Shown here one piece after another: positions 2,620-46,013 of a stretch of DNA of 64,000 nt; positions within the stretch are counted from its first letter, which is position 1, and the number at the start of each line of letters is the position of its first letter. The DNA lies in the NCBI RefSeq assembly GCF_003334785.1, contig NZ_QOWV01000001.1; one strand, written 5' to 3'. The position numbers and the translations under genes were made by a program. Under the pieces are notes generated by a model. The model did not search any database. It saw only the letters and a program-made list of their open reading frames with translations, and was not told the DNA's origin. This DNA is from Escherichia coli (GTDB taxonomy: Bacteria > Pseudomonadota > Gammaproteobacteria > Enterobacterales > Enterobacteriaceae).

Positions 2620-2655
2620 AAGATGCACCATTCTGGGGCACCAATCTGGTGCGCT
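2620..2655. promoter_or_regulatory. Two overlapping NtrC-type enhancer sites upstream of the glnH promoter
   Basis: TGCACCATTCTGGGGCA and GCACCAATCTGGTGC match the TGCACCA-N3-TGGTGCA NtrC consensus. Confidence 0.45.
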
Positions 2656-2883: not shown

Positions 2884-3531
<648 letters not shown>

Positions 3532-5492: not shown

Positions 5493-7073
5493 AGGTTTCG
5501 GGTCGAAAATATCGGTTCCGAGATGGTTGTAATCCACCTTCTGTAACTGGAAGTTGGTGATGTATATCGGCCCGGCTTTCTTCTCAGATATAAACGGGTA
5601 TTTGATGTTAATTTCCTTCGCTTTAATCCCCGTCCACTGGGAGAAAAAGCCTAAGAAGTCATTGGCTGAGCGGCGGGCTTTAATCACACGATGCGCTTTA
5701 TCGTCGCTGGAAATGACCATAAAAGGCACCTGGAAATTTTGCTGATATTTATCATCATGGGCAAGGTATTGCACGTCTTTACCGCGCTCTTTAAAGGCCA
5801 GACCGTGGTCAGAAAAGTAAACCAGCGAGAAGCTGCTGCCGCTGTTGCGTAACTGATCGTACAGCTTGCGCAGTAAATCGTCCGTTTGCGTCATGGTATA
5901 GAGATAGCACGACGTTTCTTTCGATTGCACAAAGGTTTCGTATTTTCCTTGTGTCCTGTCGCAGGCCTGCGGATGTGAGCCCATCAGATGTAGAACAATC
6001 AGCTGCGGTTGCGAGTGCTCTTGCGCCAGCACTTGAGCGGTCATATCCAGTAACGCTTCGTCTTTGGTGTTTTTATCTGCTTCAAAATTACCTTCTTTCA
6101 GGAAGTACACTTCATCTGCTCGTTTGGCGATGCTGGCGATAGCGGTATCGTATTCGCCGATTTGACCCTGGTTGGAAAACCACCAGGTCTGGAAGCCCGC
6201 GCGATTTGCCAGGGTGACAAAGTTATCCTGAAACTGTGGTTTGCCATCGACAACGCGATTGAGCGTTAAGCCAAGCGATTTCTGCGTGGAGCCACTGGCG
6301 GCAATGTAGTCAGCAAATATCAAACCGTTAACGCTGCTGGCAAACGGGGTATTGTCCCAGTGACCGCCAAAGGCACCGAGGGCATCGCGACGCGCGCTTT
6401 CACCGATCACCACCACATAGGTCTGATACTTCGGCTTAACGGCAGTGACCGTCCAGGTATCTTTCATTCCGGAAAGTTTTGCCATCCGTTCTTGCTCTTC
6501 AATCACCTCGTTATTATTGACGATGACATCCTTAGCAAAACGAAATACCGGATAGCCAGTATCTTTCAGTTTAAATACGCCACCCCAGGCCAGGTTTTGC
6601 ACGGGAGCAACAAAAAATGTCGCCACACTGAATACCAGACACAGGCTGTCGAAGGTATTCCAGCGCGCTTTTTCATTCTCTTTTTTTCGCCTGATTGCTA
6701 TTACGCCGAGCGCAAAAATAAATAAGCCGACCAGGTAGCTGTACCACGGAAAAATCGTCAGGATTTCGGTCGACTCTTCCATATTGGTGGAGTGCAATGC
6801 CAGCAATGTATTGAAATTAGGCGCGCCGTAGGCCTGAGCAAAAGGGAAATAACAAGCCGCCACCAGCGAACTGACACCGACCAGAACTTTTTGTACGCGA
6901 GGCAATGTTCGCCATAGCAAAAGCAAAATAGCCGTAAACGCAGCGGTGTAGAGCAAACTGAAGGGGTAACCTAAGCCGAGGTTAATTAATAGCGACTGTA
7001 AAAAGTAGAACGCAGTCCACGGGCTAAATACCCGGCTACGGGTAACAAGCGATTCTTTGAGGGTTAAATTCAT
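5490..7073 (-). CDS. opgE: Phosphoethanolamine transferase for osmoregulated periplasmic glucans
   Basis: 527-aa ORF with N-terminal transmembrane segments and a C-terminal sulfatase-like domain; position matches ybiP/opgE. Confidence 0.88.
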   Translation of the reverse strand: MNLTLKESLVTRSRVFSPWTAFYFLQSLLINLGLGYPFSLLYTAAFTAILLLLWRTLPRVQKVLVGVSSLVAACYFPFAQAYGAPNFNTLLALHSTNMEESTEILTIFPWYSYLVGLFIFALGVIAIRRKKENEKARWNTFDSLCLVFSVATFFVAPVQNLAWGGVFKLKDTGYPVFRFAKDVIVNNNEVIEEQERMAKLSGMKDTWTVTAVKPKYQTYVVVIGESARRDALGAFGGHWDNTPFASSVNGLIFADYIAASGSTQKSLGLTLNRVVDGKPQFQDNFVTLANRAGFQTWWFSNQGQIGEYDTAIASIAKRADEVYFLKEGNFEADKNTKDEALLDMTAQVLAQEHSQPQLIVLHLMGSHPQACDRTQGKYETFVQSKETSCYLYTMTQTDDLLRKLYDQLRNSGSSFSLVYFSDHGLAFKERGKDVQYLAHDDKYQQNFQVPFMVISSDDKAHRVIKARRSANDFLGFFSQWTGIKAKEINIKYPFISEKKAGPIYITNFQLQKVDYNHLGTDIFDPKP

Positions 7074-10220: not shown

Positions 10221-10438
10221 GTTAAGCGAGATTTTGTGCCTGGCAGGCCATTGGGTTGAGAATATTAGAGTATTGGAAGCGCATTATAAGTTCATTCCAG
10301 CTCACAGTGAAATCAGATGTGTACGAAATCACATTTTTTGCCTTTGGCTTGAGTGTAGACCTTAAGCGAGGAGCAGGATCTTCTTTCAGACTTATGGCAT
10401 AATGCGCGGTTTGTCATATCTCTTTTCAGGATACGCCT

Positions 10439-12031
10439 GTGTTAGTTTCCAGTAACGTCACCATGCAGTTCGGCAGTAAGCCGTTGTTTGAAAACATTTC
10501 CGTCAAATTTGGCGGCGGCAACCGTTACGGCCTGATTGGCGCGAACGGTAGTGGTAAATCCACCTTTATGAAGATCCTCGGCGGCGACCTTGAGCCGACG
10601 CTGGGTAACGTTTCCCTCGATCCCAACGAGCGCATTGGTAAACTGCGTCAGGATCAGTTTGCCTTTGAAGAGTTCACTGTGCTGGATACGGTGATCATGG
10701 GGCATAAAGAGTTGTGGGAAGTGAAGCAGGAGCGCGACCGCATCTATGCTTTGCCGGAAATGAGTGAAGAAGACGGCTATAAAGTGGCCGATCTGGAAGT
10801 TAAATACGGCGAAATGGACGGTTACTCTGCGGAAGCTCGCGCCGGTGAACTGTTGCTTGGCGTGGGAATTCCAGTGGAACAGCACTACGGCCCGATGAGT
10901 GAAGTTGCTCCTGGCTGGAAGCTGCGTGTGCTTCTGGCGCAGGCGCTGTTTGCTGATCCGGATATTCTCCTGCTCGACGAACCGACCAACAACCTCGACA
11001 TCGACACCATTCGCTGGCTGGAACAGGTGCTGAACGAGCGTGACAGCACCATGATCATCATCTCGCACGACCGTCACTTCCTTAACATGGTCTGTACCCA
11101 CATGGCGGATCTGGATTACGGCGAGCTGCGCGTTTATCCGGGTAACTACGATGAGTACATGACGGCGGCGACCCAGGCGCGTGAACGTCTGCTGGCCGAT
11201 AACGCCAAGAAGAAAGCGCAGATTGCTGAGTTGCAATCTTTCGTTAGCCGCTTTAGCGCCAACGCCTCGAAATCTCGCCAGGCAACTTCGCGCGCGCGCC
11301 AGATTGATAAAATCAAACTGGAAGAGGTGAAAGCCTCCAGCCGTCAGAACCCGTTCATCCGTTTTGAACAGGATAAGAAACTGTTCCGTAACGCGCTGGA
11401 AGTGGAAGGTCTGACCAAAGGGTTTGATAACGGTCCGCTGTTTAAAAATCTCAACCTGCTGCTGGAAGTGGGTGAAAAACTGGCGGTACTGGGTACCAAC
11501 GGCGTCGGTAAATCAACGCTGCTGAAAACGCTGGTGGGCGATCTGCAACCGGACAGCGGCACCGTAAAATGGTCTGAGAACGCGCGCATTGGTTACTATG
11601 CTCAGGACCACGAATATGAGTTTGAAAATGATCTGACCGTGTTCGAATGGATGAGCCAGTGGAAGCAGGAAGGCGATGACGAGCAGGCGGTACGCAGTAT
11701 TCTCGGTCGTTTGCTGTTCAGCCAGGACGACATCAAAAAGCCAGCTAAAGTGCTTTCCGGTGGGGAAAAAGGGCGGATGCTGTTTGGTAAGTTAATGATG
11801 CAGAAGCCGAACATTCTGATCATGGACGAACCGACCAACCACCTGGATATGGAATCCATTGAGTCGCTGAACATGGCACTGGAACTGTATCAGGGCACGC
11901 TGATCTTTGTTTCACACGACCGTGAGTTCGTAAGCTCCCTGGCGACCCGCATTCTGGAAATCACCCCGGAACGCGTGATCGACTTTAGCGGTAATTACGA
12001 AGATTACCTGCGTAGTAAAGGGATCGAGTAA
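10439..12031 (+). CDS. ybiT: ABC-F family ATPase with two ABC domains and no transmembrane domain
   Basis: 530-aa ORF with two Walker A motifs ([18 protein letters not shown]) and two LSGG signatures; apparent GTG start. Confidence 0.9.
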
Positions 12032-12084
12032 GTGATTATCCGTCACCCCGATACTGTCGGGGTGACGGCGGCTGATGACAAATG

Positions 12085-12200
12085 CAAAATAGCCTGATGC
12101 GCTACGCTTATCAGGCCTACGCAGTACCTGCAATATATTGAATCTGCAGGACTTTGTAGGCCGGATAAGGCGTTAACGCCGCATCAGGCATTAACAAAGC
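12085..12200. repeat. REP/BIME element(s) between ybiT and ybiU
   Basis: GCCTGATGCGCTACGCTTATCAGGCCTAC and GTAGGCCGGATAAGGCGTTAACGCCGCATCAGGC palindromic units; preceded by a perfect stem-loop at 12042-12066. Confidence 0.6.
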
Positions 12201-12271
12201 GCATTTGTCAGCAATCTGAGTAACGTCGAATCGATTTTCTTAATCCCACATCAATTCACTTCCATTAATTC

Positions 12272-13537
12272 TCAAACATCCATGCCCAACGCTCGCTTAC
12301 CGTGAATGTTGAGGTCGGCAAGCGTAAAGCGTCCTTCCCAGTTTGTTTCATAGTCCTCGCGCGGGAAGTCGCCCGGCGATGCGCCTTTTTCCAGTGCGGC
12401 CTTCACCTTGTGCGCGTAGGCAAGATTTTTCTCGCACATCGGTGCCGCAGGAATGTACATCACGTTGCCCCAACCTTGTTGATTTTCAACGGGGGCAACG
12501 GAATGGATGACGTCGCAGTGCCACCAGACGGAGTCTCCGGCTTCGAGTTTTGGAATGCTGGTTAACGCCTCAATCAACAGTGGATGCCATTGCTCTGATA
12601 CCGGCAATACTCTTCCGGGCGCTACGCCGCACAGTTCATCCTCCGGCACATCATCAAGCAGCGGACGTAACAGTACGTACGCCATAGCTTCAGGAATGGG
12701 CACGACGTGCAGCAGCCCCTGACCAGGCAGCATATCAGAGAGCGCTGTCCAGCCCTGGAATGTCCGAAACACGGAACATTTGGTGGTGTTGTCCACCGTG
12801 TACTCTTCAACTTCCGTACGATGTGCCGCATGCCAGGGATCATATTGCGCCAGATTGCCATTAAAGACGTTGGCGAAAACGCGCTGATACGCTGGAAGCA
12901 GCCAGCGTTCCAGTGCCCCGGAGTCGGTATGCGCTCCAAGACCTTTGGAGGTCGTTCCGGGCGGACGGCGGCGGATACGGTCAGGGTAGATGACGCTCAC
13001 ATCCGGGTTAAACCATTGCTTTCCATCACTTTCAAATGTCCACAGACGATTGAGAAACGACTGCGCATTCGCCATTTCTTCACTCTGGCGGGCCTGCATT
13101 TGCGCCTGCGACCAGTAGATGGGGTAAATCTCGGGACGTGAAGCGCTGAGCGTCCCGAAGAAATTATCGCCGGGGCCTTTGTAGACCTCGTCAAAGCGGT
13201 TGCGGTCCAGATAGTCCAGCATCGACTGATCCCAGCCTAGCGCTTGTTCGCGGGGGAAATGGCCTTTTATCACCGCACAACCGCGACGTTTAATCTGTTC
13301 GCGCTGCTCTGCAGTAACATGACCTGCTTTGATATCGGCATAAGACAGCACCGGCCAGACGGCATCGCCCTGTGCTTTGAGTGCGTTGATTTCAGCCACT
13401 CGCGTGGCAATGTCATCGCTTAGCTGATTAAAGATCTGCTGGACGTCGCCAAGCTGCGCCCGCAGCGCGTGCTTCATCTGACGGATAGCTGCTTTGTGAT
13501 CGGCAGGCAATGTGTCGCTGGTAAAAGTAGAAGCCAT
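12272..13537 (-). CDS. ybiU: DUF1479-family protein
   Basis: 421-aa product starting MASTFTSD; synteny with K-12 ybiU. Confidence 0.85.
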   Translation of the reverse strand: MASTFTSDTLPADHKAAIRQMKHALRAQLGDVQQIFNQLSDDIATRVAEINALKAQGDAVWPVLSYADIKAGHVTAEQREQIKRRGCAVIKGHFPREQALGWDQSMLDYLDRNRFDEVYKGPGDNFFGTLSASRPEIYPIYWSQAQMQARQSEEMANAQSFLNRLWTFESDGKQWFNPDVSVIYPDRIRRRPPGTTSKGLGAHTDSGALERWLLPAYQRVFANVFNGNLAQYDPWHAAHRTEVEEYTVDNTTKCSVFRTFQGWTALSDMLPGQGLLHVVPIPEAMAYVLLRPLLDDVPEDELCGVAPGRVLPVSEQWHPLLIEALTSIPKLEAGDSVWWHCDVIHSVAPVENQQGWGNVMYIPAAPMCEKNLAYAHKVKAALEKGASPGDFPREDYETNWEGRFTLADLNIHGKRALGMDV

Positions 13538-13688
13538 AACCACCTCTCATTAACTTTCATTCGAAACCATTCTGATTTGCATGTGACAATATAAGTTATA
13601 AATAAGTTAATGCAAGTTTAATGATTTGATGTGATGTACAGGATGTAAAAAGAAGGGAAAACCGGAGCGCACGGCTCCGGTAGAGAGG

Positions 13689-14504
13689 TCAGCTGTTAAA
13701 AGGGGATGTGTTATCCAGCACCGCCTGAATCACATTCAGCGCGCCTTCATGATTATTATCATCGGTAGCGTAACGGGCGATTTGTTTAATGTTTTCCGCA
13801 GCATTGCCCATCGCAAAGGAATAACGCGCCATTTTCAGCATCTCCGCATCGTTACCGCTGTCGCCAATCGCTACCACATTTTGCGGTGACAGATCCCAGC
13901 GTTTCAGTAACCGCGAAATACCGTTTGCTTTATGTAGACCGGGAATAATCAGGTCGATAAAGCCAAAACCACTGGTAACGGGTTTCATAATGCCATCGAG
14001 CGCTACGTGCAGTTTGTCGATCACTAACGGGATTTGTTCATCCGGCAGGTTGAGCGAAAACTTGAACAGTACGTCGTCAATCTCCTGATAATCTTTTACA
14101 GGTTTCAGGCGATGGTAGTGTTTTGCCATCAGTGCGACAAATGCTTCGGGGGCATTTTCGCTGACATATGCACTTTGCAGACCGCAGGCGACAAAATTGA
14201 GTTGCTTATCTTTTAGCAACTCGCCAATAACAATCCGCGATTCATGTCGGGTCAGTTCGCCGTGGAACAACTGCTTGCCATGTTCGTAAACCAGTGCGCC
14301 GTTTTCCGCGACAAAAGAGATCTCATCCTTTAGCTCAGGAAAGAATGAAATAAGCTGGTAATACTGATTACCGCTGGCAACAACGAACTTAATGCCGCGC
14401 TTTTTCAGTTCCTGATATTGCGCCATAAAACGTGGTTGGTTGTACGTTTTGGCGTCGTTAAGAAAAGTACCGTCCATGTCTGTGACGATAACTTTTACGC
14501 TCAT
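13689..14504 (-). CDS. ybiV: Sugar phosphatase, HAD superfamily (Cof-like)
   Basis: 271-aa ORF with HAD motif I DMDGT near the N-terminus and GDSGND motif near the C-terminus. Confidence 0.9.
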
Positions 14505-21043: not shown

Positions 21044-22009
21044 ATGGGCAAAGCAGTCATTGCAATTCATGGTGGCGCAGGTGCAATTAGCCGCGCGCAG
21101 ATGAGTCTGCAACAGGAATTACGCTACATCGAGGCGTTGTCTGCCATTGTTGAAACCGGGCAGAAAATGCTGGAAGCGGGCGAAAGTGCGCTGGATGTGG
21201 TGACGGAAGCGGTGCGTCTGCTGGAAGAGTGTCCACTGTTTAACGCCGGAATTGGCGCTGTCTTTACGCGTGATGAAACCCATGAACTGGACGCCTGTGT
21301 GATGGATGGTAACACCCTGAAAGCCGGTGCGGTGGCGGGCGTTAGTCATCTGCGTAATCCGGTTCTTGCCGCCCGGCTGGTGATGGAGCAAAGCCCGCAT
21401 GTGATGATGATTGGCGAAGGGGCAGAAAATTTTGCGTTTGCTCGTGGCATGGAGCGCGTCTCGCCGGAGATTTTCTCCACGCCTTTGCGTTATGAACAAC
21501 TACTGGCAGCGCGCAAGGAAGGGGCAACCGTCCTCGACCATAGCGGTGCGCCACTGGATGAAAAACAGAAAATGGGCACCGTGGGGGCCGTGGCGTTGGA
21601 TTTAGACGGCAATTTGGCGGCAGCCACGTCCACAGGCGGAATGACCAATAAATTACCCGGACGAGTTGGCGATAGTCCCTTAGTGGGTGCCGGATGCTAC
21701 GCCAATAACGCCAGTGTGGCGGTTTCTTGTACCGGCACGGGCGAAGTCTTCATCCGCGCGCTGGCGGCATATGACATCGCCGCGTTAATGGATTACGGCG
21801 GATTAAGTCTCGCGGAAGCCTGCGAGCGGGTAGTAATGGAAAAACTCCCTGCGCTTGGCGGTAGCGGTGGCTTAATCGCTATCGACCATGAAGGGAATGT
21901 CGCGCTACCGTTTAACACCGAAGGAATGTATCGCGCCTGGGGCTACGCAGGCGATACGCCAACCACCGGTATCTACCGTGAAAAAGGGGACACCGTTGCC
22001 ACACAGTGA
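21044..22009 (+). CDS. iaaA: Isoaspartyl dipeptidase / L-asparaginase (Ntn hydrolase)
   Basis: 321-aa ORF with autoprocessing site region GTVGAVALD. Confidence 0.9.
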
Positions 22010-23867
22010 TGAACTTGATGCCGGTAATGTGCTGGCGGTTGAAAATCTGAATATTGCCTTTATGCAGGACCAGCAGAAAATAGCTGCGGTCCGCAATCTC
22101 TCTTTTAGTCTGCAACGCGGTGAGACGCTGGCAATTGTTGGCGAATCCGGCTCCGGTAAGTCAGTGACTGCGTTGGCATTGATGCGCCTGTTGGAACAGG
22201 CGGGCGGTTTAGTACAGTGCGATAAAATGCTGTTGCAGCGGCGCAGTCGCGAAGTGATTGAACTTAGCGAGCAGAACGCTGCACAAATGCGCCATGTTCG
22301 CGGTGCGGATATGGCGATGATATTTCAGGAGCCGATGACATCGCTGAACCCGGTATTTACTGTGGGTGAACAGATTGCCGAATCAATTCGTCTGCATCAG
22401 AACGCCAGTCGTGAAGAAGCGATGGTCGAGGCGAAGCGGATGCTGGATCAGGTACGCATTCCTGAGGCACAAACCATTCTTTCACGTTATCCGCATCAAC
22501 TCTCTGGCGGGATGCGCCAGCGAGTGATGATTGCGATGGCGCTGTCATGCCGCCCGGCGGTGCTGATTGCCGATGAGCCAACCACCGCGCTGGATGTCAC
22601 TATTCAGGCGCAGATCCTGCAATTAATCAAAGTATTGCAAAAAGAGATGTCGATGGGCGTTATCTTTATCACTCACGATATGGGCGTGGTGGCAGAGATT
22701 GCCGATCGGGTACTGGTGATGTATCAGGGCGAGGCGGTGGAAACGGGTACCGTCGAACAGATTTTTCATGCACCGCAACATCCTTACACCCGTGCGCTGT
22801 TAGCTGCTGTTCCGCAACTTGGTGCGATGAAAGGGTTAGATTATCCCCGACGTTTCCCGTTGATATCGCTTGAACATCCAGCGAAACAGGCCCCCCCCAT
22901 CGAGCAGAAAACGGTGGTGGATGGCGAACCTGTTTTACGAGTGCGTAATCTTGTCACCCGTTTCCCTTTGCGCAGCGGTTTGTTGAATCGCGTAACGCGG
23001 GAAGTGCATGCCGTTGAGAAAGTCAGTTTTGATCTCTGGCCTGGCGAAACGCTATCGCTGGTGGGCGAGTCTGGCAGCGGTAAATCCACTACCGGGCGGG
23101 CGTTGCTGCGCCTGGTCGAATCGCAGGGCGGCGAAATTATCTTTAACGGTCAGCGAATCGATACCTTGTCACCCGGCAAACTTCAGGCATTACGCCGGGA
23201 TATTCAGTTTATTTTTCAGGACCCTTACGCTTCGCTGGACCCACGTCAGACCATCGGTGATTCGATTATCGAACCGCTGCGTGTACACGGTTTATTGCCA
23301 GGTAAAGACGCGGCTGCACGCGTTGCGTGGTTGCTGGAGCGCGTGGGCCTGTTACCTGAACATGCCTGGCGTTACCCGCATGAGTTTTCCGGCGGTCAGC
23401 GCCAGCGCATCTGCATTGCTCGCGCGTTGGCATTGAATCCAAAAGTGATCATTGCCGACGAAGCCGTTTCGGCGCTGGATGTTTCTATTCGCGGGCAGAT
23501 TATCAACTTGTTGCTCGATCTCCAGCGTGATTTCGGCATTGCGTATCTGTTTATCTCCCACGATATGGCGGTGGTAGAGCGGATTAGTCATCGTGTGGCG
23601 GTGATGTATCTCGGGCAAATTGTTGAAATTGGTCCACGGCGCGCGGTCTTCGAAAACCCGCAGCATCCTTATACGCGTAAATTACTGGCGGCAGTTCCGG
23701 TCGCTGAACCGTCCCGACAACGACCGCAGCGTGTACTGCTGTCGGACGATCTTCCCAGCAATATTCATCTGCGTGGCGAAGAGGTGGCAGCCGTCTCGTT
23801 GCAATGCGTCGGGCCGGGGCATTACGTCGCACAACCACAATCAGAATACGCATTCATGCGTAGATAA
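21996..23867 (+). CDS. gsiA: Glutathione ABC importer ATP-binding protein (tandem ABC domains)
   Basis: Two ABC cassettes (GESGSGKS twice, LSGGMRQR and FSGGQRQR); start taken at in-frame TTG (LPHSDELD) overlapping iaaA end, 623 aa. Confidence 0.85.
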
Positions 23868-23886
23868 CATTCAGGCGGAGAATAAA

Positions 23887-25425
23887 ATGGCAAGAGCTGT
23901 ACACCGTAGTGGGTTAGTGGCGCTGGGCATTGCGACAGCGTTGATGGCATCTTGTGCATTCGCTGCCAAAGATGTGGTGGTGGCGGTAGGATCGAATTTC
24001 ACCACGCTCGATCCGTATGACGCAAATGACACGTTATCTCAGGCCGTAGCGAAATCGTTTTACCAGGGGCTGTTCGGTCTGGATAAAGAGATGAAACTGA
24101 AAAACGTGCTGGCGGAGAGTTATACCGTTTCCGATGACGGCATTACTTACACCGTGAAATTGCGGGAAGGCATTAAATTCCAGGATGGCACCGATTTCAA
24201 CGCCGCGGCGGTGAAAGCGAATCTGGACCGGGCCAGCGATCCGGCGAATCATCTTAAACGCTATAACCTGTATAAGAATATTGCTAAAACGGAAGCGATC
24301 GATCCGACAACGGTAAAGATTACCCTCAAACAGCCGTTCTCAGCGTTTATTAATATTCTTGCCCATCCGGCGACCGCGATGATTTCACCGGCAGCGCTGG
24401 AAAAATATGGCAAGGAGATTGGTTTTTATCCGGTGGGAACCGGACCGTATGAACTGGATACCTGGAATCAGACCGATTTTGTGAAGGTGAAAAAATTCGC
24501 GGGTTACTGGCAGCCAGGATTGCCCAAACTGGACAGCATAACCTGGCGTCCGGTGGCGGATAACAACACCCGCGCGGCAATGCTGCAAACCGGTGAAGCG
24601 CAGTTTGCTTTCCCCATTCCTTACGAGCAGGCCACACTGCTGGAGAAAAACAAAAATATCGAGTTGATGGCCAGTCCGTCAATTATGCAGCGTTATATCA
24701 GTATGAACGTGACGCAAAAGCCGTTCGATAACCCGAAGGTCCGTGAGGCGCTGAATTACGCCATTAACCGTCCGGCGCTGGTGAAAGTTGCCTTTGCGGG
24801 CTATGCAACGCCAGCTACTGGTGTGGTACCGCCAAGTATCGCCTACGCGCAAAGTTATAAACCGTGGCCTTACGATCCAGTGAAAGCGCGCGAATTACTG
24901 AAAGAGGCGGGATATCCCAACGGTTTCAGTACCACGCTGTGGTCGTCACATAACCACAGCACCGCGCAGAAAGTGCTGCAATTTACCCAGCAGCAGTTAG
25001 CGCAGGTCGGGATTAAAGCCCAGGTGACTGCGATGGATGCCGGACAGCGGGCGGCAGAAGTTGAAGGTAAAGGGCAAAAAGAGAGCGGCGTGCGGATGTT
25101 CTACACTGGCTGGTCGGCTTCAACCGGCGAAGCGGACTGGGCACTATCGCCGCTGTTTGCCTCGCAGAACTGGCCACCGACGCTGTTTAATACCGCGTTT
25201 TACAGCAATAAACAGGTGGATGACTTCCTGGCTCAGGCACTGAAAACTAATGATCCGGCGGAAAAGACCCGCTTATATAAGGCGGCGCAGGATATCATCT
25301 GGCAAGAATCGCCGTGGATCCCGCTGGTGGTAGAAAAACTGGTGTCGGCACACAGTAAAAACCTGACCGGTTTTTGGATCATGCCAGACACCGGCTTCAG
25401 CTTTGAAGACGCGGATTTGCAATAA
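23887..25425 (+). CDS. gsiB: Glutathione-binding periplasmic protein
   Basis: 512-aa product starting [26 protein letters not shown]; family 5 solute-binding protein. Confidence 0.9.
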
Positions 25426-27277: not shown

Positions 27278-27454
27278 TTACGTTTGAATATTGCTTGAAA
27301 GGGTAATCACCTCACAGGAAATTATTGCCCTAAGCAAGTGTTGTAACTTTCTGCTGATTTTGTAGAATCGGGTAATTTGGTTAAAAAGCCGCAGCAAGGG
27401 ACAATTTTTGCAGCGGCACAGCGTTCAGATAGTTATTTTGTTAAATGTATTAAC

Positions 27455-29803
27455 ATGCTGAGTTTATACGAAAAGATAAAGATAAGGCTGATAATTTTAT
27501 TTTTATTGGCAGCACTGTCATTTATTGGTCTTTTTTTCATCATTAACTATCAACTGGTATCGGAGCGCGCGGTAAAACGTGCCGATAGCCGCTTTGAACT
27601 TATTCAGAAAAACGTTGGCTATTTCTTTAAAGATATTGAACGTTCGGCCCTGACATTAAAGGACTCACTGTATTTATTAAAAAATACAGAGGAGATTCAA
27701 CGCGCCGTGATTCTTAAAATGGAAATGATGCCATTTTTAGACTCGGTGGGACTGGTACTTGATGATAATAAATATTATCTTTTTTCGCGGAGGGCGAATG
27801 ATAAAATCGTTGTTTATCATCAGGAACAAGTAAATGGACCGCTTGTCGACGAGTCAGGGCGGGTTATTTTTGCCGATTTTAACCCATCGAAACGACCGTG
27901 GTCGGTGGCTTCAGATGACTCTAACAACAGCTGGAATCCGGCATACAATTGCTTTGATCGTCCGGGTAAAAAATGTATCTCTTTTACGCTACACATCAAC
28001 GGCAAAGATCACGATTTGTTAGCGGTGGATAAAATTCATGTCGATTTAAACTGGCGATATCTGAACGAGTATCTTGATCAAATCAGCGCTAATGATGAAG
28101 TTCTATTTTTGAAACAAGGCCATGAGATCATTGCCAAGAATCAACTCGCTCGTGAAAAACTGATTATTTATAATAGCGAAGGTAATTATAATATTATTGA
28201 TTCTGTCGATACTGAATATATCGAAAAAACATCAGCGGTGCCAAACAACGCATTATTCGAAATCTATTTTTATTATCCTGGCGGTAATTTATTGAACGCA
28301 TCAGATAAACTTTTTTATCTGCCGTTTGCGTTCATTATTATCGTATTGCTGGTGGTTTATTTAATGACCACTCGTGTGTTCCGTCGGCAATTTTCTGAAA
28401 TGACAGAGCTGGTTAATACGCTGGCGTTTTTGCCTGACTCAACGGATCAAATCGAGGCTCTGAAAATTCGTGAAGGCGATGCGAAAGAGATTATCAGCAT
28501 CAAAAATTCGATCGCGGAAATGAAAGATGCCGAAATTGAACGGTCAAATAAATTGCTCTCACTGATCTCTTACGATCAGGAAAGTGGTTTTATTAAAAAT
28601 ATGGCGATTATTGAGTCTAACAATAATCAGTATCTGGCTGTGGGGATCATCAAACTGTGTGGTCTGGAAGCCGTGGAAGCGGTGTTTGGTGTTGATGAGC
28701 GCAATAAAATCGTCAGGAAATTGTGTCAGCGAATTGCCGAGAAATATGCGCAATGCTGCGATATCGTGACATTCAATGCCGATCTCTATTTACTTCTGTG
28801 TCGGGAAAATGTACAGACATTTACCCGTAAAATAGCGATGGTAAACGATTTTGACAGCAGCTTTGGCTACCGCAATCTGCGCATCCATAAGTCTGCCATT
28901 TGTGAACCTTTGCAGGGGGAAAACGCCTGGAGTTACGCAGAAAAACTGAAACTGGCGATTTCCAGTATCCGTGACCATATGTTCTCAGAGTTTATTTTCT
29001 GTGATGACGCGAAACTCAACGAAATAGAAGAGAATATCTGGATTGCGCGTAATATTCGCCATGCAATGGAAATTGGCGAACTATTCCTCGTCTATCAACC
29101 GATCGTTGATATTAACACCCGCGCCATTCTGGGCGCGGAGGCGTTGTGCCGTTGGGTGTCTGCGGAGCGGGGGATCATTTCACCGCTGAAGTTCATTACC
29201 ATTGCTGAAGATATCGGGTTTATCAATGAGCTGGGTTATCAGATTATTAAAACGGCAATGGGTGAATTCAGACATTTTAGTCAGCGTGCGTCGCTGAAGG
29301 ATGATTTCTTACTGCATATTAATGTTTCGCCCTGGCAGTTAAACGAACCACACTTTCATGAGCGTTTTACCACCATCATGAAAGAAAATGGCCTGAAGGC
29401 GAACAGCCTCTGTGTTGAGATCACTGAAACCGTGATCGAGCGAATTAATGAACATTTTTATCTCAATATTGAACAACTGCGTAAACAAGGGGTACGGATA
29501 TCGATTGATGACTTTGGCACCGGTTTGTCAAACCTGAAACGTTTTTATGAAATTAATCCAGACAGCATAAAGGTGGACTCGCAATTCACCGGCGATATTT
29601 TCGGTACTGCGGGAAAAATTGTGCGCATTATTTTCGACCTGGCACGCTATAACCGGATCCCGGTGATTGCGGAAGGCGTAGAGAGCGAAGACGTTGCGCG
29701 CGAATTAATCAAATTAGGATGTGTTCAGGCTCAGGGGTATCTGTACCAGAAACCCATGCCATTCTCCGCCTGGGATAAAAGTGGAAAATTAGTAAAAGAG
29801 TAG
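27455..29803 (+). CDS. pdeI: c-di-GMP phosphodiesterase with periplasmic sensor domain and EAL domain
   Basis: Start chosen at [12 protein letters not shown] (782 aa); C-terminal EAL-type region; AT-rich gene. Confidence 0.85.
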
Positions 29804-29810
29804 TTTACGT

Positions 29811-31139
29811 ATGTCCAGAATCAATAAGTTCGTACTTACAGTCAGTCTGCTGATTTTTATCATGATTTCAGCAGTTGCCTGCGGGATCTACACTCAAATG
29901 GTAAAGGAACGGGTGTATAGCCTGAAACAGTCCGTTATTGATACTGCTTTTGCGGTGGCAAATATTGCTGAATATCGGCGTAGCGTGGCAATTGATCTTA
30001 TCAACACGCTAAATCCCACGGAGGAACAGCTGTTGGTTGGTTTGCGCACAGCTTACGCCGACTCGGTTTCCCCCTCTTATTTGTACGATGTCGGTCCTTA
30101 TCTGATTTCCAGTGACGAATGTATTCAGGTAAAGGAGTTCGAGAAAAATTATTGTGCAGATATTATGCAGGTTGTGAAGTATCGACATGTCAAAAATACA
30201 GGGTTTATCTCTTTTGACGGTAAAACCTTCGTCTATTACCTCTATCCGGTAACTCACAATCGTAGTCTGATATTTTTGCTTGGTCTGGAGCGTTTTTCTT
30301 TACTGTCAAAATCGCTGGCGATGGACAGCGAGAACCTGATGTTCTCTCTATTTAAGAACGGTAAACCGGTGACCGGTGATGAATATAATGCTAAAAACGC
30401 CATCTTCACCGTTTCGGAAGCGATGGAGCACTTCGCCTATTTGCCGACCGGATTGTATGTATTTGCGTATAAAAAAGATGTTTATTTGCGGGTTTGTACA
30501 TTGATTATTTTCTTTGCCGCATTGGTGGCAGTGATATCGGGTGCCAGTTGCCTCTATCTGGTACGCAGAGTGATTAATCGTGGTATTGTGGAGAAAGAAG
30601 CCATCATTAATAACCATTTTGAACGCGTACTGGATGGCGGGCTTTTCTTTTCGGCTGCCGATGTCAAAAAACTCTACAGTATGTATAACTCGGCGTTCCT
30701 GGACGACCTGACCAAAGCAATGGGCAGAAAATCCTTTGACGAAGATTTAAAAGCGCTGCCGGAAAAAGGCGGTTATTTGTGCCTGTTTGACGTCGATAAA
30801 TTCAAAAACATTAACGACACCTTCGGTCATTTGCTGGGCGATGAAGTGTTGATGAAAGTGGTGAAAATCCTTAAATCACAGATCCCGGTAGATAAAGGTA
30901 AAGTCTACCGCTTCGGCGGTGACGAATTTGCGGTGATTTATACGGGTGGAACGCTGGAAGAGTTGCTATCGATTCTAAAAGAAATCGTTCATTTCCAGGT
31001 GGGAAGCATTAATTTAAGTACCAGTATCGGTGTAGCACATTCAAATGAATGTCCTACCGTCGAACGCTTGAAAATGCTGGCGGATGAGCGGCTGTATAAG
31101 AGTAAGAAAAACGGCAGGGCACAGATTAGCTGGCAGTAA
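29811..31139 (+). CDS. dgcI: Diguanylate cyclase (GGDEF domain)
   Basis: 442-aa ORF with N-terminal membrane/periplasmic part and C-terminal RFGGDEF motif. Confidence 0.85.
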
Positions 31140-31185
31140 TCATTATTCGCAGGCCGGACAAATGATTTTGCCCGGCCTGAATTAA

Positions 31186-42451: not shown

Positions 42452-42465
42452 AACAAAAAACCCAT
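42452..42465. repeat. Candidate attL core (left copy of 14-bp direct repeat)
   Basis: AACAAAAAACCCAT is identical to 54039-54052. Confidence 0.6.
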
Positions 42466-42539: not shown

Positions 42540-43592
42540 TTACGGGGTAATGCCAACCGCTGCCGCCACTTTGTCGCCACTTGGCAGCGTTGCCAGAGGA
42601 TTGAAACGGAGCGCCGTTTCTAGATGATCCGGTGCCAGATGTGCGTAACGCATAGTCATTTTTATATCGTGGTGTCCGAGAATTTTTTGTAAGGCCAGAA
42701 TGTTTCCACCCGACATCATGAAGTGCGCCGCAAACGTATGGCGCAGAACGTGTGTGAGTTGACCGCGAGGGAGCACGATAGACGTTTTTTCCATCACGGA
42801 TAAAAATTGAAAATAGCAGTCTGTGAAGAAATTGAACCCATCAAGCGCCATGATCTCTTCGTAAAGCTCTTTACTGATAGGGATGCTTCTGTTTTTCTTC
42901 CCCTTCGTTCTGACAAAGGTAATTCGGTATTTGGTCACCTGTGAGCGGGTAAGATTTACGGCTTCACGCCAGCGTGCGCCTGTGCTTAAGCATATCTTAA
43001 CTACCAGTGCCAGAATTGGGTCCTGACGTTTGCAATCAGCCAGCAATTCAACAATCTGCTCATGGGTAAGCCATGCCATCTCTTTTTCTGCGATGGTGAA
43101 TTTTCGCATGTTCTCCAGTGGGTTCGGATACGACCATTCGCCCAGACGGGATAGTTCGCTAAAAACACTACTTAGATAGCTTTGCTCCAGGTTAATGGTG
43201 ACCGGGCTTGCTCCTTTCTTCCATTTCTCGCTGAAGTAGATCTCGCCTGTCAGGCGTTTATCTCGATAGTGGGCAAACATTTTAGAGGTGAGATCGGTTG
43301 CAAGAGGATTGCCCAGAGCGTCAACCATCAACAGCAATTTGTCATAGACATGCTGCCCAGCTGTCAGAGATTTACCATGTAGTTTGAACCATAGCTCAAC
43401 CACGTCTTTCAGTGTTCGACGATCCACTGATTCACCCAGCCAGGGCTTTGCTTCGGTTTCTTCCATCGTGTGGCGCTCAAAAGCCAGTGCTTCGCCTTTG
43501 GTGGCGAATTGTTTACGCACACGACGCCCACTTCGTCCGGCGGGGTAACATTCGCAAAGCCATTTCCCTGTGGTTAGTTTTCGTACTGCCAT
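42540..43592 (-). CDS. int: Phage integrase, tyrosine recombinase (P2/186 Int-like)
   Basis: 350-aa ORF with catalytic signature STGARWREA, HVLRHTFAAHF and MRYAHL. Confidence 0.92.
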   Translation of the reverse strand: MAVRKLTTGKWLCECYPAGRSGRRVRKQFATKGEALAFERHTMEETEAKPWLGESVDRRTLKDVVELWFKLHGKSLTAGQHVYDKLLLMVDALGNPLATDLTSKMFAHYRDKRLTGEIYFSEKWKKGASPVTINLEQSYLSSVFSELSRLGEWSYPNPLENMRKFTIAEKEMAWLTHEQIVELLADCKRQDPILALVVKICLSTGARWREAVNLTRSQVTKYRITFVRTKGKKNRSIPISKELYEEIMALDGFNFFTDCYFQFLSVMEKTSIVLPRGQLTHVLRHTFAAHFMMSGGNILALQKILGHHDIKMTMRYAHLAPDHLETALRFNPLATLPSGDKVAAAVGITP

Positions 43593-43674
43593 AAAAAGCC
43601 CTCATATCAGAGGGCTAAATTTAACTGTATATGTAACCAGTAATCAATGTGTGATTACTATGAAACATACATTG

Positions 43675-45351
43675 CTAAGCAACATGTAGTTCATCGTTGG
43701 CGGAAGTGGCTGCTTTGCGCTCCTGCTCAATAGCTAGAGACTCTCTATATTCTTTCGCCTCTGCAAACATTGTCCAGTGGGCGTTGATGTTCATGTCTTC
43801 AATAACTGATTTGATTTCTTTTAAATTTACGTTAAAAAACTCTTTTCGTGAGTTAATTTTATTGACCTGCTTTTCGTTGAAAACTTTATGCAGATGGTTT
43901 TCTAATGATGGTGCATCATCACTATAAATCATCGCATGAACATCGAACGAAAAAGGAACACTAGCATCTCCGAGTTCACGAACACGATCAAGTGGTTCAA
44001 GGCGGCGTGTCATTCCAATTTTATATACATCTTCGCCAAATGAACCAATATTACTAATGATATAGACGTGGCCTGATCTGGTTTGTTGAGCCATAGAAAT
44101 AGCTCGTTGATTTTTAGCTTCAGCTTCTTCATATTTTAACTGTAGTTCAGCTATTTTTTGCTCTAAAGCTAAGCGTTGTTCTTCATTTGCAAGCATAAGT
44201 TCTTTCGTTGCTTTATTTATAGCTTGCTGAATAGCTTTTTCTTCTTTTTCAGCTTCTTTTATCGCTTTTTCATATTCTCTACGAGCTCTTTCCTCTTCAC
44301 GAAGCTGTTCTTTAATCCTTCTTTGCTCTTCTTTTTCTTCGAGCATAATTTCATTAACTGCTACACCCCATTTTAGCTCGTTGAGTCTTGCCTGAAGATA
44401 GATGTCACTTATTTTTGCGGACCTAAAGGCAGAGCCATTGTAATTTACTAGTTGAAATGCATCTTTTATTTCTTGGGAAAGTTTTCCAAAATTGTTGTGT
44501 TTGACTTTTGATAAAATACTGTCAACTCTTCCATTGAAGGCATCCAAAACAAAGTTTATGGCAGTATTACGCCTGTTTTGCTCAACATAATCACACGAAG
44601 CAGCTTTATTAGTTTTTATTAATGATTTGGTTAACTCTCTGGCTTTTTGTAATTCCTTGCCTGCATCTGTAAATTCATAATTTTCTGCCAGCTCATCAAG
44701 TACACTACGGTTAGGGATGATCCATTCATCACCATAACCTTCAATTTTATTTTTCATTGATTTTGCAACTGCTTCATATTTTTCTGCAAACTCTTTAGCT
44801 TCATATGCTGAACCAGCAATCTCCTTTGCTCTTTCTTCTGCATCAGAAATAATTTTTACTGCATTGTCATTAGCATTTGAGATTAGCTCATTTGCTTTAT
44901 TATTAGCATTATCAAGACGTTCTTTGGCTTTCAGGCGTGCATCGCGAGCGTCTTTGGTGATTGCTATAGCTTCGCTATTAGCGTTGCTTATTGTCATCTG
45001 AGCTTGATAATTTGCTTCGTTTACTGTTTTAGCCGCCTTAATTTGGGCTTCATCTATTTTTTGCTTGGCTATTGAGTCCGCATTTTTTATCTTATTCTCT
45101 GCATCCATTACTGCGCTGTGCAATTCTTCGTATTGCCACAATGGTGCTGCTCGCCCTTCAAGCTCTGATAATTCTCGTACGGTCTGTGCTAGTTTTTCTT
45201 GATTTTCAATCAGTTGGTTAGAAAGGGCTATGTTGTTAGCTGTCAGGTTATCTATAGCCGCTTTGTGTTTTTTACTTTGTTTAAATAATATTACAGCTAG
45301 AACAGGGGCGAGAAATGCTAATAAGAGTATAACGATGGCAAATGAATTCAT
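43675..45351 (-). CDS. Prophage accessory protein: N-terminal TM helix, long coiled coils, C-terminal GIY-YIG-like (T5orf172-type) domain; candidate anti-phage gene
   Basis: 558-aa ORF between int and the CI-like gene, co-oriented with both; AT-rich; hydrophobic N-terminus FAIVILLLAFLAPVLAVILF; K/E/A-rich heptad regions; C-terminal GHVYIISN...YKIGMTRR...E...N motif block. Confidence 0.8.
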   Translation of the reverse strand: MNSFAIVILLLAFLAPVLAVILFKQSKKHKAAIDNLTANNIALSNQLIENQEKLAQTVRELSELEGRAAPLWQYEELHSAVMDAENKIKNADSIAKQKIDEAQIKAAKTVNEANYQAQMTISNANSEAIAITKDARDARLKAKERLDNANNKANELISNANDNAVKIISDAEERAKEIAGSAYEAKEFAEKYEAVAKSMKNKIEGYGDEWIIPNRSVLDELAENYEFTDAGKELQKARELTKSLIKTNKAASCDYVEQNRRNTAINFVLDAFNGRVDSILSKVKHNNFGKLSQEIKDAFQLVNYNGSAFRSAKISDIYLQARLNELKWGVAVNEIMLEEKEEQRRIKEQLREEERARREYEKAIKEAEKEEKAIQQAINKATKELMLANEEQRLALEQKIAELQLKYEEAEAKNQRAISMAQQTRSGHVYIISNIGSFGEDVYKIGMTRRLEPLDRVRELGDASVPFSFDVHAMIYSDDAPSLENHLHKVFNEKQVNKINSRKEFFNVNLKEIKSVIEDMNINAHWTMFAEAKEYRESLAIEQERKAATSANDELHVA

Positions 45352-45371
45352 TTTAAAATCCTTTTACTATA

Positions 45372-45968
45372 TTAATTCGAGACTATTGTACTTCTTATAC
45401 AAGCAACCACTTCAATATCAGAAAATGCACATTCAAAGCTATTCTCTGCTGTTGTAATTTTAATCATTCCTTTAGGAAGCCTTGTGATTTTTCGAATGGA
45501 ATAGGTTCCGTCGATATTGATTAACCAGTTTCCATCAAGTACTTCAGAAAATTTTTGATCACAAATGTATGTGACGAGTCCATCCTGAACAACAATTGGT
45601 GATGAAAGGTTTGCAGGAAGAAATGATGAATCGAAGACATATGAACCGTCTTCAATCATTTTGCCTGCGGCAAGGCGAAACTTAACAAGCTCTTCTGTAG
45701 CTGCTGTCAGCGAGCTTTGCTTAAGGCCTTGTCCGGTAGTTAACCATTTGAGGGAGGTTCCTGTTTCAAGAGCACATTGGATTATCCAGTCAGCAGGAAA
45801 TGTATCCCGCAAATACCTGTTCGCTAGTGTGCTTTTTGATACTTCCAAGTGATCAGCTAAAGCCTGTCGTGTCGTAAAGCCATAGGCTTCGACTAATCGC
45901 TCAATCGCAGCCTTACCACCTTTATTGGGATTTATTTTGATCTCACTTGGGTACTTTGATGTTGACAT
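45372..45968 (-). CDS. cI: Phage immunity repressor (186 CI-like)
   Basis: 198-aa ORF with HTH region FTTRQALADHLEVSKSTLANRYL, transcribed divergently from the apl/cII-like genes. Confidence 0.8.
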   Translation of the reverse strand: MSTSKYPSEIKINPNKGGKAAIERLVEAYGFTTRQALADHLEVSKSTLANRYLRDTFPADWIIQCALETGTSLKWLTTGQGLKQSSLTAATEELVKFRLAAGKMIEDGSYVFDSSFLPANLSSPIVVQDGLVTYICDQKFSEVLDGNWLINIDGTYSIRKITRLPKGMIKITTAENSFECAFSDIEVVACIRSTIVSN

Positions 45969-46013
45969 ATCTCTTTTGCGATCCTAGTATCAGTTTTGTA
46001 CCCAATTGGGTAC
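45962..46013 (+). promoter_or_regulatory. Candidate rightward early promoter (pR-like) with palindromic operator
   Basis: -35 TTGACA (45962-45967), 17-bp spacer, -10 TAGTAT (45985-45990), then perfect 16-bp palindrome GTACCCAATTGGGTAC (45998-46013). Confidence 0.5.

Follow-up and report, generated by a model that had tools for sequence, protein, structure and literature searches.

SNIPE, or PD-lambda-1, is a membrane-bound GIY-YIG nuclease of E. coli (Vassallo et al. 2022, PMC9519451; bioRxiv 10.1101/2025.11.03.685801). Its mechanism has been described by Saxton et al. (2025, bioRxiv 10.1101/2025.11.03.685801). The studied 500-aa protein sits in the inner membrane with its nuclease in the cytoplasm, and removal of the membrane helix makes it toxic. 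It associates with ManYZ and with the phage tape-measure protein, and protects directly and without abortive infection, cleaving phage DNA as it is injected. A W257R substitution broadened the range of the studied protein, and constitutive expression is known at the level of the SNIPE family only.

We analysed a 64,000-nucleotide stretch of Escherichia coli DNA (the window) that contains two AT-rich blocks: an accessory gene encoding 558 aa, between the int and cI genes of a prophage, and the c-di-GMP gene pair pdeI-dgcI (Table 1). Both blocks are real and horizontally acquired, and both correspond to things already described. The best explanation, which we consider very probable, is that the 558-aa gene is anti-phage cargo of a P2/186-like phage that integrated at the 3′ end of rybB and is now a defective remnant, with pdeI-dgcI being a separate and much older insertion. 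The practical value of these results is small and current understanding is unchanged; they do correct an annotation, as the gene named 'chromosome segregation ATPase' in phage records is SNIPE-like.

Table 1. Features of the two AT-rich blocks and of the surrounding prophage, in window coordinates
Feature	Coordinates	Strand	Evidence
3.9-kb insertion between convergent gsiD and rimO: 177-bp leader, pdeI, dgcI	27278..31183		Empty-site similarity limits; synteny table
pdeI (yliE), sensor EAL-domain phosphodiesterase, 782 aa, GC 41.6%	27455..29803	+	RefSeq annotation; NCBIfam EAL; GC
dgcI (yliF), GGDEF-domain protein, 442 aa, GC 43.5%	29811..31139	+	RefSeq annotation; TIGR00254 GGDEF above cut-off; GC
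attL core AACAAAAAACCCAT, left end of prophage remnant	42452..42465		Exact 14-mer; K-12 homology breaks here
P2-type tyrosine integrase (int), 350 aa, GC 48.9%	42540..43592	-	ORF; RefSeq 'phage integrase'; NCBIfam tyrosine-recombinase matches
Terminator-like hairpin and T-run, ending at int start codon, on conserved int-side flank	43597..43616	-	Pattern scan, sequence
SNIPE/PD-Lambda-1-family gene, 558 aa	43675..45351	-	PADLOC, Pfam, PHROG, alignment to studied SNIPE, hydropathy, dN/dS
Mosaic module (cargo gene and cI)	43675..45960		BLAST breakpoints 43674/43675 and 45960/45961 vs 4LV2017; ORFs of alternative module
cI immunity repressor, 186-type, 198 aa, GC 40.2%	45372..45968	-	RefSeq name; PHROG transcriptional repressor; GC; sequence
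Promoter-like site TTGACA, 17-nt spacer, TAGTAT, facing cox/apl-cII lytic operon	45962..45990	+	Consensus scan 10/12, consensus match only
Cox/Apl-like excisionase-repressor, 73 aa	46064..46285	+	PHROG 575, E = 9.6e-32
In-frame fusion ORF, 1034 aa: gpA (replication endonuclease) 5′ part and tail tape-measure 3′ part	48969..52073	+	ORF; AR_0085/KP12 comparison
ogr-like zinc-finger late activator, 72 aa, last prophage gene	53743..53961	+	ORF; position and length as KP12 OGR protein
attR core, identical to attL core, last 14 nt of rybB	54039..54052		14-mer repeat; Rfam placement of RybB
RybB sRNA gene, intact, 3′ end is the attachment site	54039..54117	-	Rfam RF00110, 105 bits, model 1-79 of 79; K-12 annotation

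Composition was compared with a backbone reference consisting of the 45 chromosomal genes of the window (GC mean 52.0%, sd 2.8, minimum 44.3%; GC3 mean 57.0%, sd 4.6). Against this reference, the second AT-rich block of the preliminary description, pdeI-dgcI, was clearly recovered. Both genes lie below all 45 backbone genes in GC (z = -3.7 for pdeI and -3.0 for dgcI), and the pair (42.3%) is more AT-rich than every one of 37,450 backbone windows of 3685 nt (backbone minimum 46.7%). The deficit falls mostly on codon positions 1 and 2, GC3 is modestly reduced (45-50% versus 57%), and the dinucleotide distance of 61.7 is borderline, at about the 98.7th percentile. Codon usage lies inside the backbone range (B = 0.23 and 0.26; CAI-like index 0.66 and 0.64). 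The preliminary description had named GC and codon usage within the normal range of flanking genes as the outcome that would count against foreign origin; for this pair, GC is outside that range and codon usage is within it.

Comparative analysis revealed that pdeI-dgcI is present in 5426/5426 complete E. coli genomes, is 100% identical to the pair in the K-12 derivative J53, and also occurs in E. albertii. A rimO-anchored scan yielded a scattered set of listed loci, without Salmonella, E. coli or E. fergusonii; among these, Citrobacter werkmanii, Enterobacter sp. Bisph1, Enterobacter sp. BIGb0383 and Mangrovibacter have gsiD and rimO facing each other directly, with 45-110 bp between them. 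Alignment to the empty sites in other genera ends at the gsiD stop codon and picks up again at that of rimO. Given such scattered loci, only E. albertii at one end, and Citrobacter and the other genera at the other, constrain when the insertion took place. The proposal that the pair was inserted after the gsi operon as an older acquisition is thus borne out by a junction that is empty in the listed Citrobacter, Enterobacter and Mangrovibacter and by the presence of the pair in E. albertii. These observations fit an old 3.9-kb insertion acquired in the Escherichia lineage. Our literature search on pdeI and dgcI found nothing on their distribution outside E. coli.

Alternatively, the pair could be ancestral to the Enterobacteriaceae and repeatedly lost, its AT-richness stemming from protein function (membrane sensor domains). 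Such a history would agree with the backbone-like codon usage, with a GC deficit seated chiefly at codon positions 1 and 2, and with a gsiD-rimO junction that is variable and holds other insertions in some genera. It would also agree with the lack of target duplications and mobility genes: no direct-repeat family bridges both insertion junctions, and no integrase or transposase is annotated there in RefSeq. We nevertheless judge it unlikely, as the tight convergent junction of the four listed genera has a hairpin but lacks any trace of the pair, GC3 still falls short of the backbone by 7-12 points, and GC remains at 40-42% in E. albertii. Moreover, PdeI diverges much faster than its neighbours (88% versus 97-99.8% amino-acid identity). 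The insertion, which we consider very probable, is an event separate from and much older than the arrival of the prophage cargo. The pair has become fixed in the Escherichia lineage, keeping its low GC mainly at codon positions 1 and 2 as its codon usage converged on that of the host. It offers a clean example of an old insertion in which codon usage has converged and base composition has not.

The 558-aa gene belongs to a different context, an 11.6-kb defective P2/186-like remnant inserted at the 3′ end of rybB. The 14-mer att core occurs exactly twice in the window (0 expected by chance). The gene order int-cI-cox-cII-fil-...-dam-A...T-U-D-ogr is collinear with circularly permuted phage KP12 at 95-97% identity, and the right arm aligns to the KP12 ogr region at 96.6% nucleotide identity. 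Relative to KP12, the remnant lacks about 23 kb between a point within gpA and one within the tape-measure gene; this deletion removed the replication, head, lysis and most tail genes and rendered the prophage defective. The resulting fusion junction lies at 50269-50270, with homology to AR_0085 ending at 50270, and occurs in 0/5426 genomes. As regards membership of the Peduoviridae, the remnant has the P2/186 gene order and the duplicated 14-bp core and lacks a complete replication and morphogenesis set. AR_0085 was dropped as the reference for the deletion in favour of KP12, its own prophage being rearranged beyond the lysis genes. Similarly, vB_EcoM-813R9 was not counted as an independent phage, because its record turned out to cover a predicted prophage region flanked by host DNA.

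In K-12 MG1655 the prophage site is empty and reads rcdA-rybB-ybjL, and the 558-aa gene is therefore not a K-12 gene. Among the 5426 complete E. coli genomes, 164 carry it and 1118 carry the same int lineage. The description of the AT-rich blocks as conserved K-12 genes accordingly holds for pdeI-dgcI and fails for the accessory gene.

Loss of about 23 kb, including the replication, head, lysis and most tail genes, would be compatible with a silent passenger decaying in a dead prophage. Several features make this quite improbable. The ORF is undamaged and matches copies from complete prophages at 100% identity, the cI gene directly upstream is intact too, and comparison with the phage KP12 orthologue gives a dN/dS of 0.053, indicating strong purifying selection over the whole ORF. 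The defective remnant thus keeps an intact anti-phage gene under purifying selection.

Profile and domain searches identify the 558-aa gene as a divergent member of the SNIPE (PD-lambda-1) family of anti-phage nuclease genes, an assignment made from sequence. The PADLOC PD-Lambda-1 profile (PDLC03976) matches aa 106-550 over profile positions 36-481 of 491 (E = 2.4e-120), and PHROG 1847 matches aa 6-547 (E = 6.6e-133). By hydropathy, the sole hydrophobic segment spans aa 4-23 (mean Kyte-Doolittle 3.16) and is followed by a basic KQSKKHK. DUF4041 (PF13250) lies at aa 267-322 (Pfam E = 3.1e-12), and a C-terminal GIY-YIG nuclease domain at aa 427-520 is recognised by the Pfam families MUG113 (E = 1.9e-19) and T5orf172 (E = 8.1e-17).

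For alignment, the studied SNIPE was represented by the 500-aa protein of phage PhiR26_1, which is annotated PD-lambda-1 and has, at the stated positions, 9/9 of the residues that the SNIPE paper singles out. The two proteins share 42% identity over aa 77-555 of the 558-aa protein. Identity reaches 74% in the nuclease domain, where the catalytic Glu is kept (SNIPE E414 aligned to E484), and just 28% in the DUF4041 part, and the N-terminal 264 aa show no significant BLASTP similarity to the studied SNIPE. Since the N-terminus is dissimilar and DUF4041 so weakly conserved, the phage range and host partners of the 558-aa protein may differ. Its membrane topology, its nuclease activity and the phages it targets are predicted by homology with the studied protein.

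In newer RefSeq records, the orthologous gene (99.8-99.9% nucleotide identity) goes under the name 'SNIPE associated domain-containing protein'. Orthologues of 558 aa with 83-85% identity are found in Citrobacter, Salmonella, Klebsiella and Enterobacter, in line with maintenance of the gene. All homologues gathered are at least 82% identical, giving a shallow alignment. No ATPase domain was found in the protein, despite its name in phage records, and no solved structure related to it by sequence was found. A DivIVA/Wag31 identity was rejected: the NCBIfam match is below threshold (22 bits, cut-off 260) and was taken as coiled-coil noise.

The place of the gene between int and cI is a variable cargo slot, where the immunity repressor changes along with unrelated defence genes that are just as AT-rich. 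At this position, related prophages and phages whose int flanks are 95-98% identical have other genes or next to nothing. Sampled relatives have Old (strain D5), PDC-S20 (strain 09-02E) or unknown genes, and the slot of strain 82.0312 and of E. coli B holds just a 63-aa ORF. Klebsiella phage 4LV2017 has another module, 2.6 kb long, in place of both cargo and cI, between 95%-identical flanks. All slot cargo is AT-rich (GC 30-37%, GC3 23-30%). None of the two 4LV2017 cargo proteins, the slot ORFs of 60-110 aa and the 401-aa gene next to int in RE-2010 gave a PADLOC match. For the P2-like lineage that integrates at rybB, these data document an int-cI slot filled alternately by SNIPE-like, Old, PDC-S20 and unknown genes, the last being possible new defence candidates to screen.

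This variation supports the proposal that the gene is accessory phage cargo of foreign composition, given that related phages with near-identical int flanks differ at exactly this place. The term 'moron' applies in part: between conserved flanks some relatives have the gene and others lack it, and its composition is deviant, but it does not look like a classic self-contained unit, following the cI stop codon by 20 nt with no promoter-like site between them. Nor is cI an ordinary neighbour, as it is itself AT-rich and is swapped along with the cargo.

The GIY-YIG fold is also used by homing endonucleases. A gene with T5orf172 and MUG113 domains that is present or absent between conserved flanks might therefore be a selfish homing endonuclease inserted between int and cI, with no role in defence. 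We regard this as very improbable, because the full architecture (membrane helix, long coiled coil, DUF4041 and nuclease) fits PD-Lambda-1 over 445 residues, the flanking breakpoints enclose cI too, the slot is occupied in other strains by non-nuclease defence genes, and strong purifying selection acts on the whole ORF.

The compositional anomaly of this anti-phage cargo gene is pronounced by every measure. The gene is an intact ORF with the limits given in the preliminary description, and its GC of 37.0% and GC3 of 27.2% correspond to z = -5.3 and -6.5 against the backbone. In a sliding-window test, 0/43,474 backbone windows of 1677 nt were as AT-rich (minimum 43.9%). The dinucleotide-signature distance is 183, compared with a maximum of 100 among 1000 backbone chunks; the CAI-like index (0.546) is below that of all backbone genes, and rare codons number 79 per 1000 versus 22 in the backbone. 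The strong A+T-richness proposed earlier is thus upheld by GC, GC3, sliding-window, dinucleotide and codon measures alike, and, as both GC and codon usage fall outside the backbone range, the gene does not resemble its flanking genes in the way that would have spoken against foreign origin.

The reported contrast with both neighbours holds for int (GC 48.9%) and not for cI, which is AT-rich as well (GC3 32%). The AT trough spans about 43,600 to 45,700 and includes the 3′ half of cI. The prophage remnant outside the 558-aa gene has a GC of 51%, and the phage lineage is not uniformly at about 37%. That the low GC is a by-product of a Lys/Glu/Asn/Ile-rich coiled coil (Glu, Lys and Asn make up 12%, 9.5% and 8.2% of the protein, respectively, and GC2 is 0.31) hardly deserves credence, as the deficit is greatest at synonymous third positions (GC3 27% versus 57%), rare codons occur at 3.6x the backbone rate, the dinucleotide signature is far beyond the backbone range, and the same slot holds unrelated proteins (Old, a KAP NTPase) whose genes are just as AT-rich. 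A foreign origin, by horizontal acquisition, accounts for the low GC of the 558-aa gene.

From its sequence context, the 558-aa gene looks operon-embedded rather than autonomous. The 20-nt gap after the cI stop codon contains no promoter-like site by consensus scan, which likewise detected no lysogenic promoter; an AAGGA ribosome-binding site precedes the gene, and a terminator-like hairpin lies downstream of it, between the gene and int. Phage 186 has a leftward lysogenic transcript, from which any gene located between cI and int would be expressed in a lysogen. Judging by gene spacing, the 558-aa gene is probably co-transcribed with cI, and would be transcribed in the lysogen as part of a leftward cI-(cargo)-int operon. 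The N-terminal helix would anchor the protein in the inner membrane, DUF4041 and the GIY-YIG nuclease would lie on the cytoplasmic side, and the nuclease would cut superinfecting phage DNA as it enters the cell. In this proposed mechanism the chromosome would be spared because the nuclease is held at the membrane.

Comparison with known systems places these findings in context. The pdeI-dgcI pair is the same as K-12 PdeI (YliE) and DgcI (YliF), without difference; what is added is comparative evidence for an Escherichia-lineage insertion at gsiD-rimO. The prophage resembles coliphage 186, with its cI-int lysogenic operon, and the lysogenic-conversion genes of P2 in the order int-cI-cox/apl-cII-fil-...-dam-A with T, U, D and ogr at the other end, and in having its attachment site within a small-RNA gene. 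Unlike the prophage of the window, the related phages RE-2010 and ESSI2_ev040 have int right beside the repressor.

The encoded protein shares with SNIPE a three-part architecture of a single N-terminal membrane helix, a central DUF4041 and a C-terminal GIY-YIG nuclease with catalytic Glu. Both genes are AT-rich (GC 35% for SNIPE, 37% here) and both lie on a prophage or phage record. They differ in length (558 aa here versus 500 aa), in the residues aligned to W257 and E223 (Lys327 and Ser292, respectively), and in location, the studied copy lying in a lambdoid phage beside O/P/ren and the 558-aa gene in a P2-like int-cI slot. Given the unrelated first 264 aa, the divergent DUF4041 and Lys327 at the W257 position, it is conceivable, though we hold it only tentatively, that the 558-aa enterobacterial subfamily is a functionally distinct SNIPE that uses an entry channel other than ManYZ and excludes other phages. 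A linked possibility, equally tentative, is that cargo and cI are exchanged as one cassette; if true, such exchange would tie immunity type to defence content.

Finally, the int-cI slot is comparable to the defence hotspots of P2-like phages (Rousset et al. 2022, PMC9122126; Vassallo et al. 2022; 2026 preprint 10.64898/2026.02.27.708500) in that interchangeable defence genes, here SNIPE-like, Old and PDC-S20, occupy a fixed locus in collinear prophages. It differs in being neither the classic gpA-portal (old/tin) hotspot, which is deleted in the prophage of the window, nor the fun(Z) hotspot, and in that the exchanged unit, by comparison with 4LV2017, also takes in the cI repressor.

Both blocks singled out in the preliminary description are genuine compositional islands of horizontal origin. 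Composition analysis of the 558-aa gene, located between the genes int and cI of a prophage, gave a GC content of 37.0% and a GC3 of 27.2%, versus a mean GC of 52.0% (sd 2.8, minimum 44.3%) and a GC3 of 57.0% across the 45 chromosomal (backbone) genes of the window. None of 43,474 backbone sliding windows of 1677 nt matched its AT-richness, and all backbone genes exceeded its CAI-like index of 0.546. Rare codons numbered 79 per 1000 versus 22 in the backbone, and the dinucleotide signature scored 183, the backbone never exceeding 100. GC, GC3, sliding windows, codon usage and dinucleotides thus all bear out the proposed AT-rich island. The contrast claimed with its neighbours holds for int (48.9% GC) but hardly for cI, because cI is itself AT-rich (40.2% GC, 32% GC3).

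The window contains Escherichia coli chromosome from glnQ to potI; up to position 50270 it shares 99.97% identity with strain AR_0085, and both sides of an 11.6-kb insertion are 99.9% identical to K-12 MG1655. MG1655 reads rcdA-rybB-ybjL without a prophage at this site, so the description of these genes as conserved K-12 genes fails for the 558-aa gene. A 14-bp core, AACAAAAAACCCAT, occurs in only two copies in the window, one of them forming the 3′ end of the intact RybB sRNA gene (Rfam, 105 bits). These last 14 nt of rybB serve the P2-like prophage as attachment core, and the gene is intact at attR; the attL copy is part of a terminator-like hairpin downstream of int. Between the cores lies a P2/186-like prophage with int, the 558-aa gene, cI, cox/apl, cII, fil, DUF5347, DUF2732, traR-like, dam and gpA, followed by T, U, D and ogr. 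Relative to KP12, a circularly permuted phage genome with 95-97% identity to it, the prophage is missing about 23 kb, from within gpA to within the tape-measure gene. The deletion ends meet with a 2-bp overlap, producing an in-frame 1034-aa fusion in which the 5′ portion of the gpA (replication endonuclease) gene runs into the 3′ portion of the tail tape-measure gene; as a single piece, this junction was absent from all 5426 complete RefSeq E. coli genomes. Owing to this deletion the prophage is a defective remnant, which retains int, the defence gene and the immunity region. The classic gpA-portal hotspot is likewise deleted in the window; there, the full-length relative in AR_0085 carries an ABC-three-component system and the related remnant in E. 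coli B a retron St85 effector (see table).

Features of the window and of compared loci
Feature	Sequence	Position	Strand	Remark
Inverted repeat copies	window	78-208; 12089-12218		~130 bp
ES036 (CssrF) match	window	12113-12155		Rfam
pdeI-dgcI insertion	window	27278 to ~31183
pdeI	window	27455-29803	+	EAL-domain phosphodiesterase
dgcI	window	29811-31139	+	GGDEF domain
attL core	window	42452-42465
Hairpin at attL	window	42480-42459
int	window	42540-43592	-
Hairpin before int	window	43616-43597	-	7 bp, G+C-rich, with T-run
AT trough	window	~43.6 to 45.7 kb
558-aa gene	window	43675-45351	-	SNIPE-like
cI	window	45372-45968	-
gpA/tape-measure fusion ORF	window	48969-52073
Deletion junction	window	50269-50270
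attR core	window	54039-54052
rybB	window	54039-54117	-
gpA-portal hotspot	AR_0085 (L002)	21198-24149		ABC-three-component system
gpA-portal hotspot	E. coli B (L094)	10407-10593		retron St85 effector
int-cI slot	phage 4LV2017 (L004)	1244-2900		201-aa and 349-aa proteins
int-cI slot	strain D5			Old homologue, PADLOC E = 9e-235
int-cI slot	strain 09-02E			PDC-S20 KAP-type NTPase, PADLOC E = 2.6e-171
int-cI slot	strain 82.0312 and E. coli B			63-aa ORF only
cI pseudogene	E. coli 13E0780 (L091)	5698-6294		internal stop
gsiD-rimO junction	Superficieibacter (L008)	11324-14372		3-kb insert, four genes, normal GC
gsiD-rimO junction	Enterobacter sp. Ag1 (L012)	11324-12206		246-aa ORF, signal peptide, family unassigned
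gsiD-rimO junction	Erwinia psidii (L017)	11318-11819		149-aa ORF
Additional ORF, rimO-dgcI	E. albertii (L007)	1956-2718		234 aa
558-aa protein	deposited record (L089)	27346-29022		ATPase name (see text)
558-aa protein	deposited record (L088)	27790-29466		ATPase name (see text)

The suggestion that the phage acquired this gene as cargo is upheld by the differing contents found between conserved flanks in Klebsiella phage 4LV2017 and in four strains that share this int and its insertion site (D5, 09-02E, 82.0312 and E. coli B). Up to 43674 and from 45961 onward, phage 4LV2017 and the window share 95% identity; between these flanks the phage carries another 2.6-kb module (30-39% GC) that includes a different, 313-aa cI. 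Its other two genes (30-33% GC) encode a 201-aa multi-pass membrane protein and a 349-aa protein; neither had a PADLOC match, their sole PHROG match was a family of unknown function, and they are candidate components of a defence or exclusion system that has yet to be described. In the four strains, the cargo has 33-36% GC and 25-30% GC3, beside int at 47-49% GC. The int lineage was found in 1118 of the 5426 complete genomes and the 558-aa gene in 164, always chromosomal and single-copy; the two divergent alleles inspected shared both the int-cI slot and the chromosomal site.

The gene starts 20 nt downstream of the cI stop codon, with AAGGA upstream of its start codon, and this gap contains no promoter-like site. 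It is therefore probably co-transcribed with cI, under the lysogenic promoter, and would be constitutive in the lysogen, where its product would exclude superinfecting phages. The terminator-like hairpin between its stop codon and the int start is part of the conserved flank on the int side; its T-run and the int ATG overlap, and the hairpin might limit read-through into int. In E. coli 13E0780 the upstream cI is annotated as a pseudogene and the SNIPE-like gene is intact, which would make it a natural setting in which to ask if expression depends on cI.

The second block, pdeI-dgcI, has GC contents of 41.6% and 43.5%, below every backbone gene, and its AT-richness was unmatched among 37,450 backbone windows of 3685 nt. 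Codon positions 1 and 2 account for most of the deficit, GC3 being moderately lowered, and codon usage lies within the backbone range; the anomaly is therefore one of GC but not of codon usage. All 5426 complete E. coli genomes contain the pair (5381 at ≥80% query coverage). A rimO-anchored synteny scan of the genome collection, whose results hold among the loci listed, located it at the same place in E. albertii (GC 40-42%), where amino-acid identity is 88% for PdeI, 93% for DgcI and 97-99.8% for neighbouring genes. The convergent genes gsiD and rimO face each other across a gap of just 45-110 bp with a hairpin in Citrobacter werkmanii, Enterobacter sp. Bisph1, Enterobacter sp. BIGb0383 and Mangrovibacter. 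Similarity to these empty sites ends at the gsiD stop codon and restarts at the rimO stop codon, which delimits the insertion; neither flanking repeats nor mobility genes were detected around it. Among the loci listed, other inserts occupy this junction in other genera; the additional E. albertii ORF resembles a 229-aa Superficieibacter ORF by eye only. Presence in E. albertii and empty junctions elsewhere agree with the older horizontal acquisition proposed. The simplest interpretation is that the Escherichia lineage acquired the pair long ago and that its codon usage then converged on the host's. Elsewhere in the window, two intergenic inverted copies, 81% identical, probably represent a REP/BIME-type repeat; the second overlaps the CssrF match.

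The 558-aa protein matches the PADLOC PD-Lambda-1 profile (E = 2.4e-120) and, over its whole length, PHROG 1847. Pfam places DUF4041 at aa 267-322 and a GIY-YIG-type T5orf172/MUG113 domain at aa 427-520; the sole hydrophobic segment, aa 4-23, is followed by a basic stretch. Orthologous genes (99.8-99.9% nucleotide identity) are named 'SNIPE associated domain-containing protein' in newer RefSeq records and 'DUF4041 domain-containing protein' in older ones. The protein is called 'chromosome segregation ATPase' in deposited phage records and 'vacuolar-type H+-ATPase subunit H' in JGI records; both names are probably coiled-coil artefacts. Pfam, NCBIfam and PADLOC detected no ATPase domain. Same-length proteins, 83-85% identical, occur in Citrobacter, Salmonella enterica subspecies, Klebsiella, Raoultella, Enterobacter and Lelliottia, and by sequence the 558-aa form is a well-populated subfamily. 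Its dN/dS of 0.053 against the KP12 copy indicates strong purifying selection.

PD-lambda-1 was discovered by a functional screen (PMC9519451). As SNIPE, it is a constitutively membrane-bound nuclease that cleaves phage DNA during injection, has ManYZ and the lambda tape-measure protein as partners, and is toxic without its membrane helix (bioRxiv 10.1101/2025.11.03.685801). The 500-aa PD-lambda-1-annotated product of phage PhiR26_1 served as reference because all nine residues named in that study stand at the named positions. The window protein is 42% identical to it over aa 77-555 (nuclease domain 74%, coiled-coil linker 48%, DUF4041 part 28%), with E484 aligned to E414 of SNIPE. BLASTP against this reference detected no significant similarity within the first 264 aa, which agrees with the N-terminal region being the least conserved and most variable in length in the family (bioRxiv 10.1101/2025.11.03.685801). 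Lys327 aligns to W257, whose substitution W257R widened the range of the studied protein (bioRxiv 10.1101/2025.11.03.685801). Given its divergent N-terminal half and DUF4041, the 558-aa subfamily may have different partners and a different phage range. The reference gene is likewise AT-rich (35% GC, adjoining O/P genes at 51%). Collectively, both blocks are instances of what has already been described: pdeI-dgcI is a well-known E. coli core pair, and the 558-aa gene belongs to the SNIPE/PD-lambda-1 family and occupies a minor hotspot already known from P2-like prophages.
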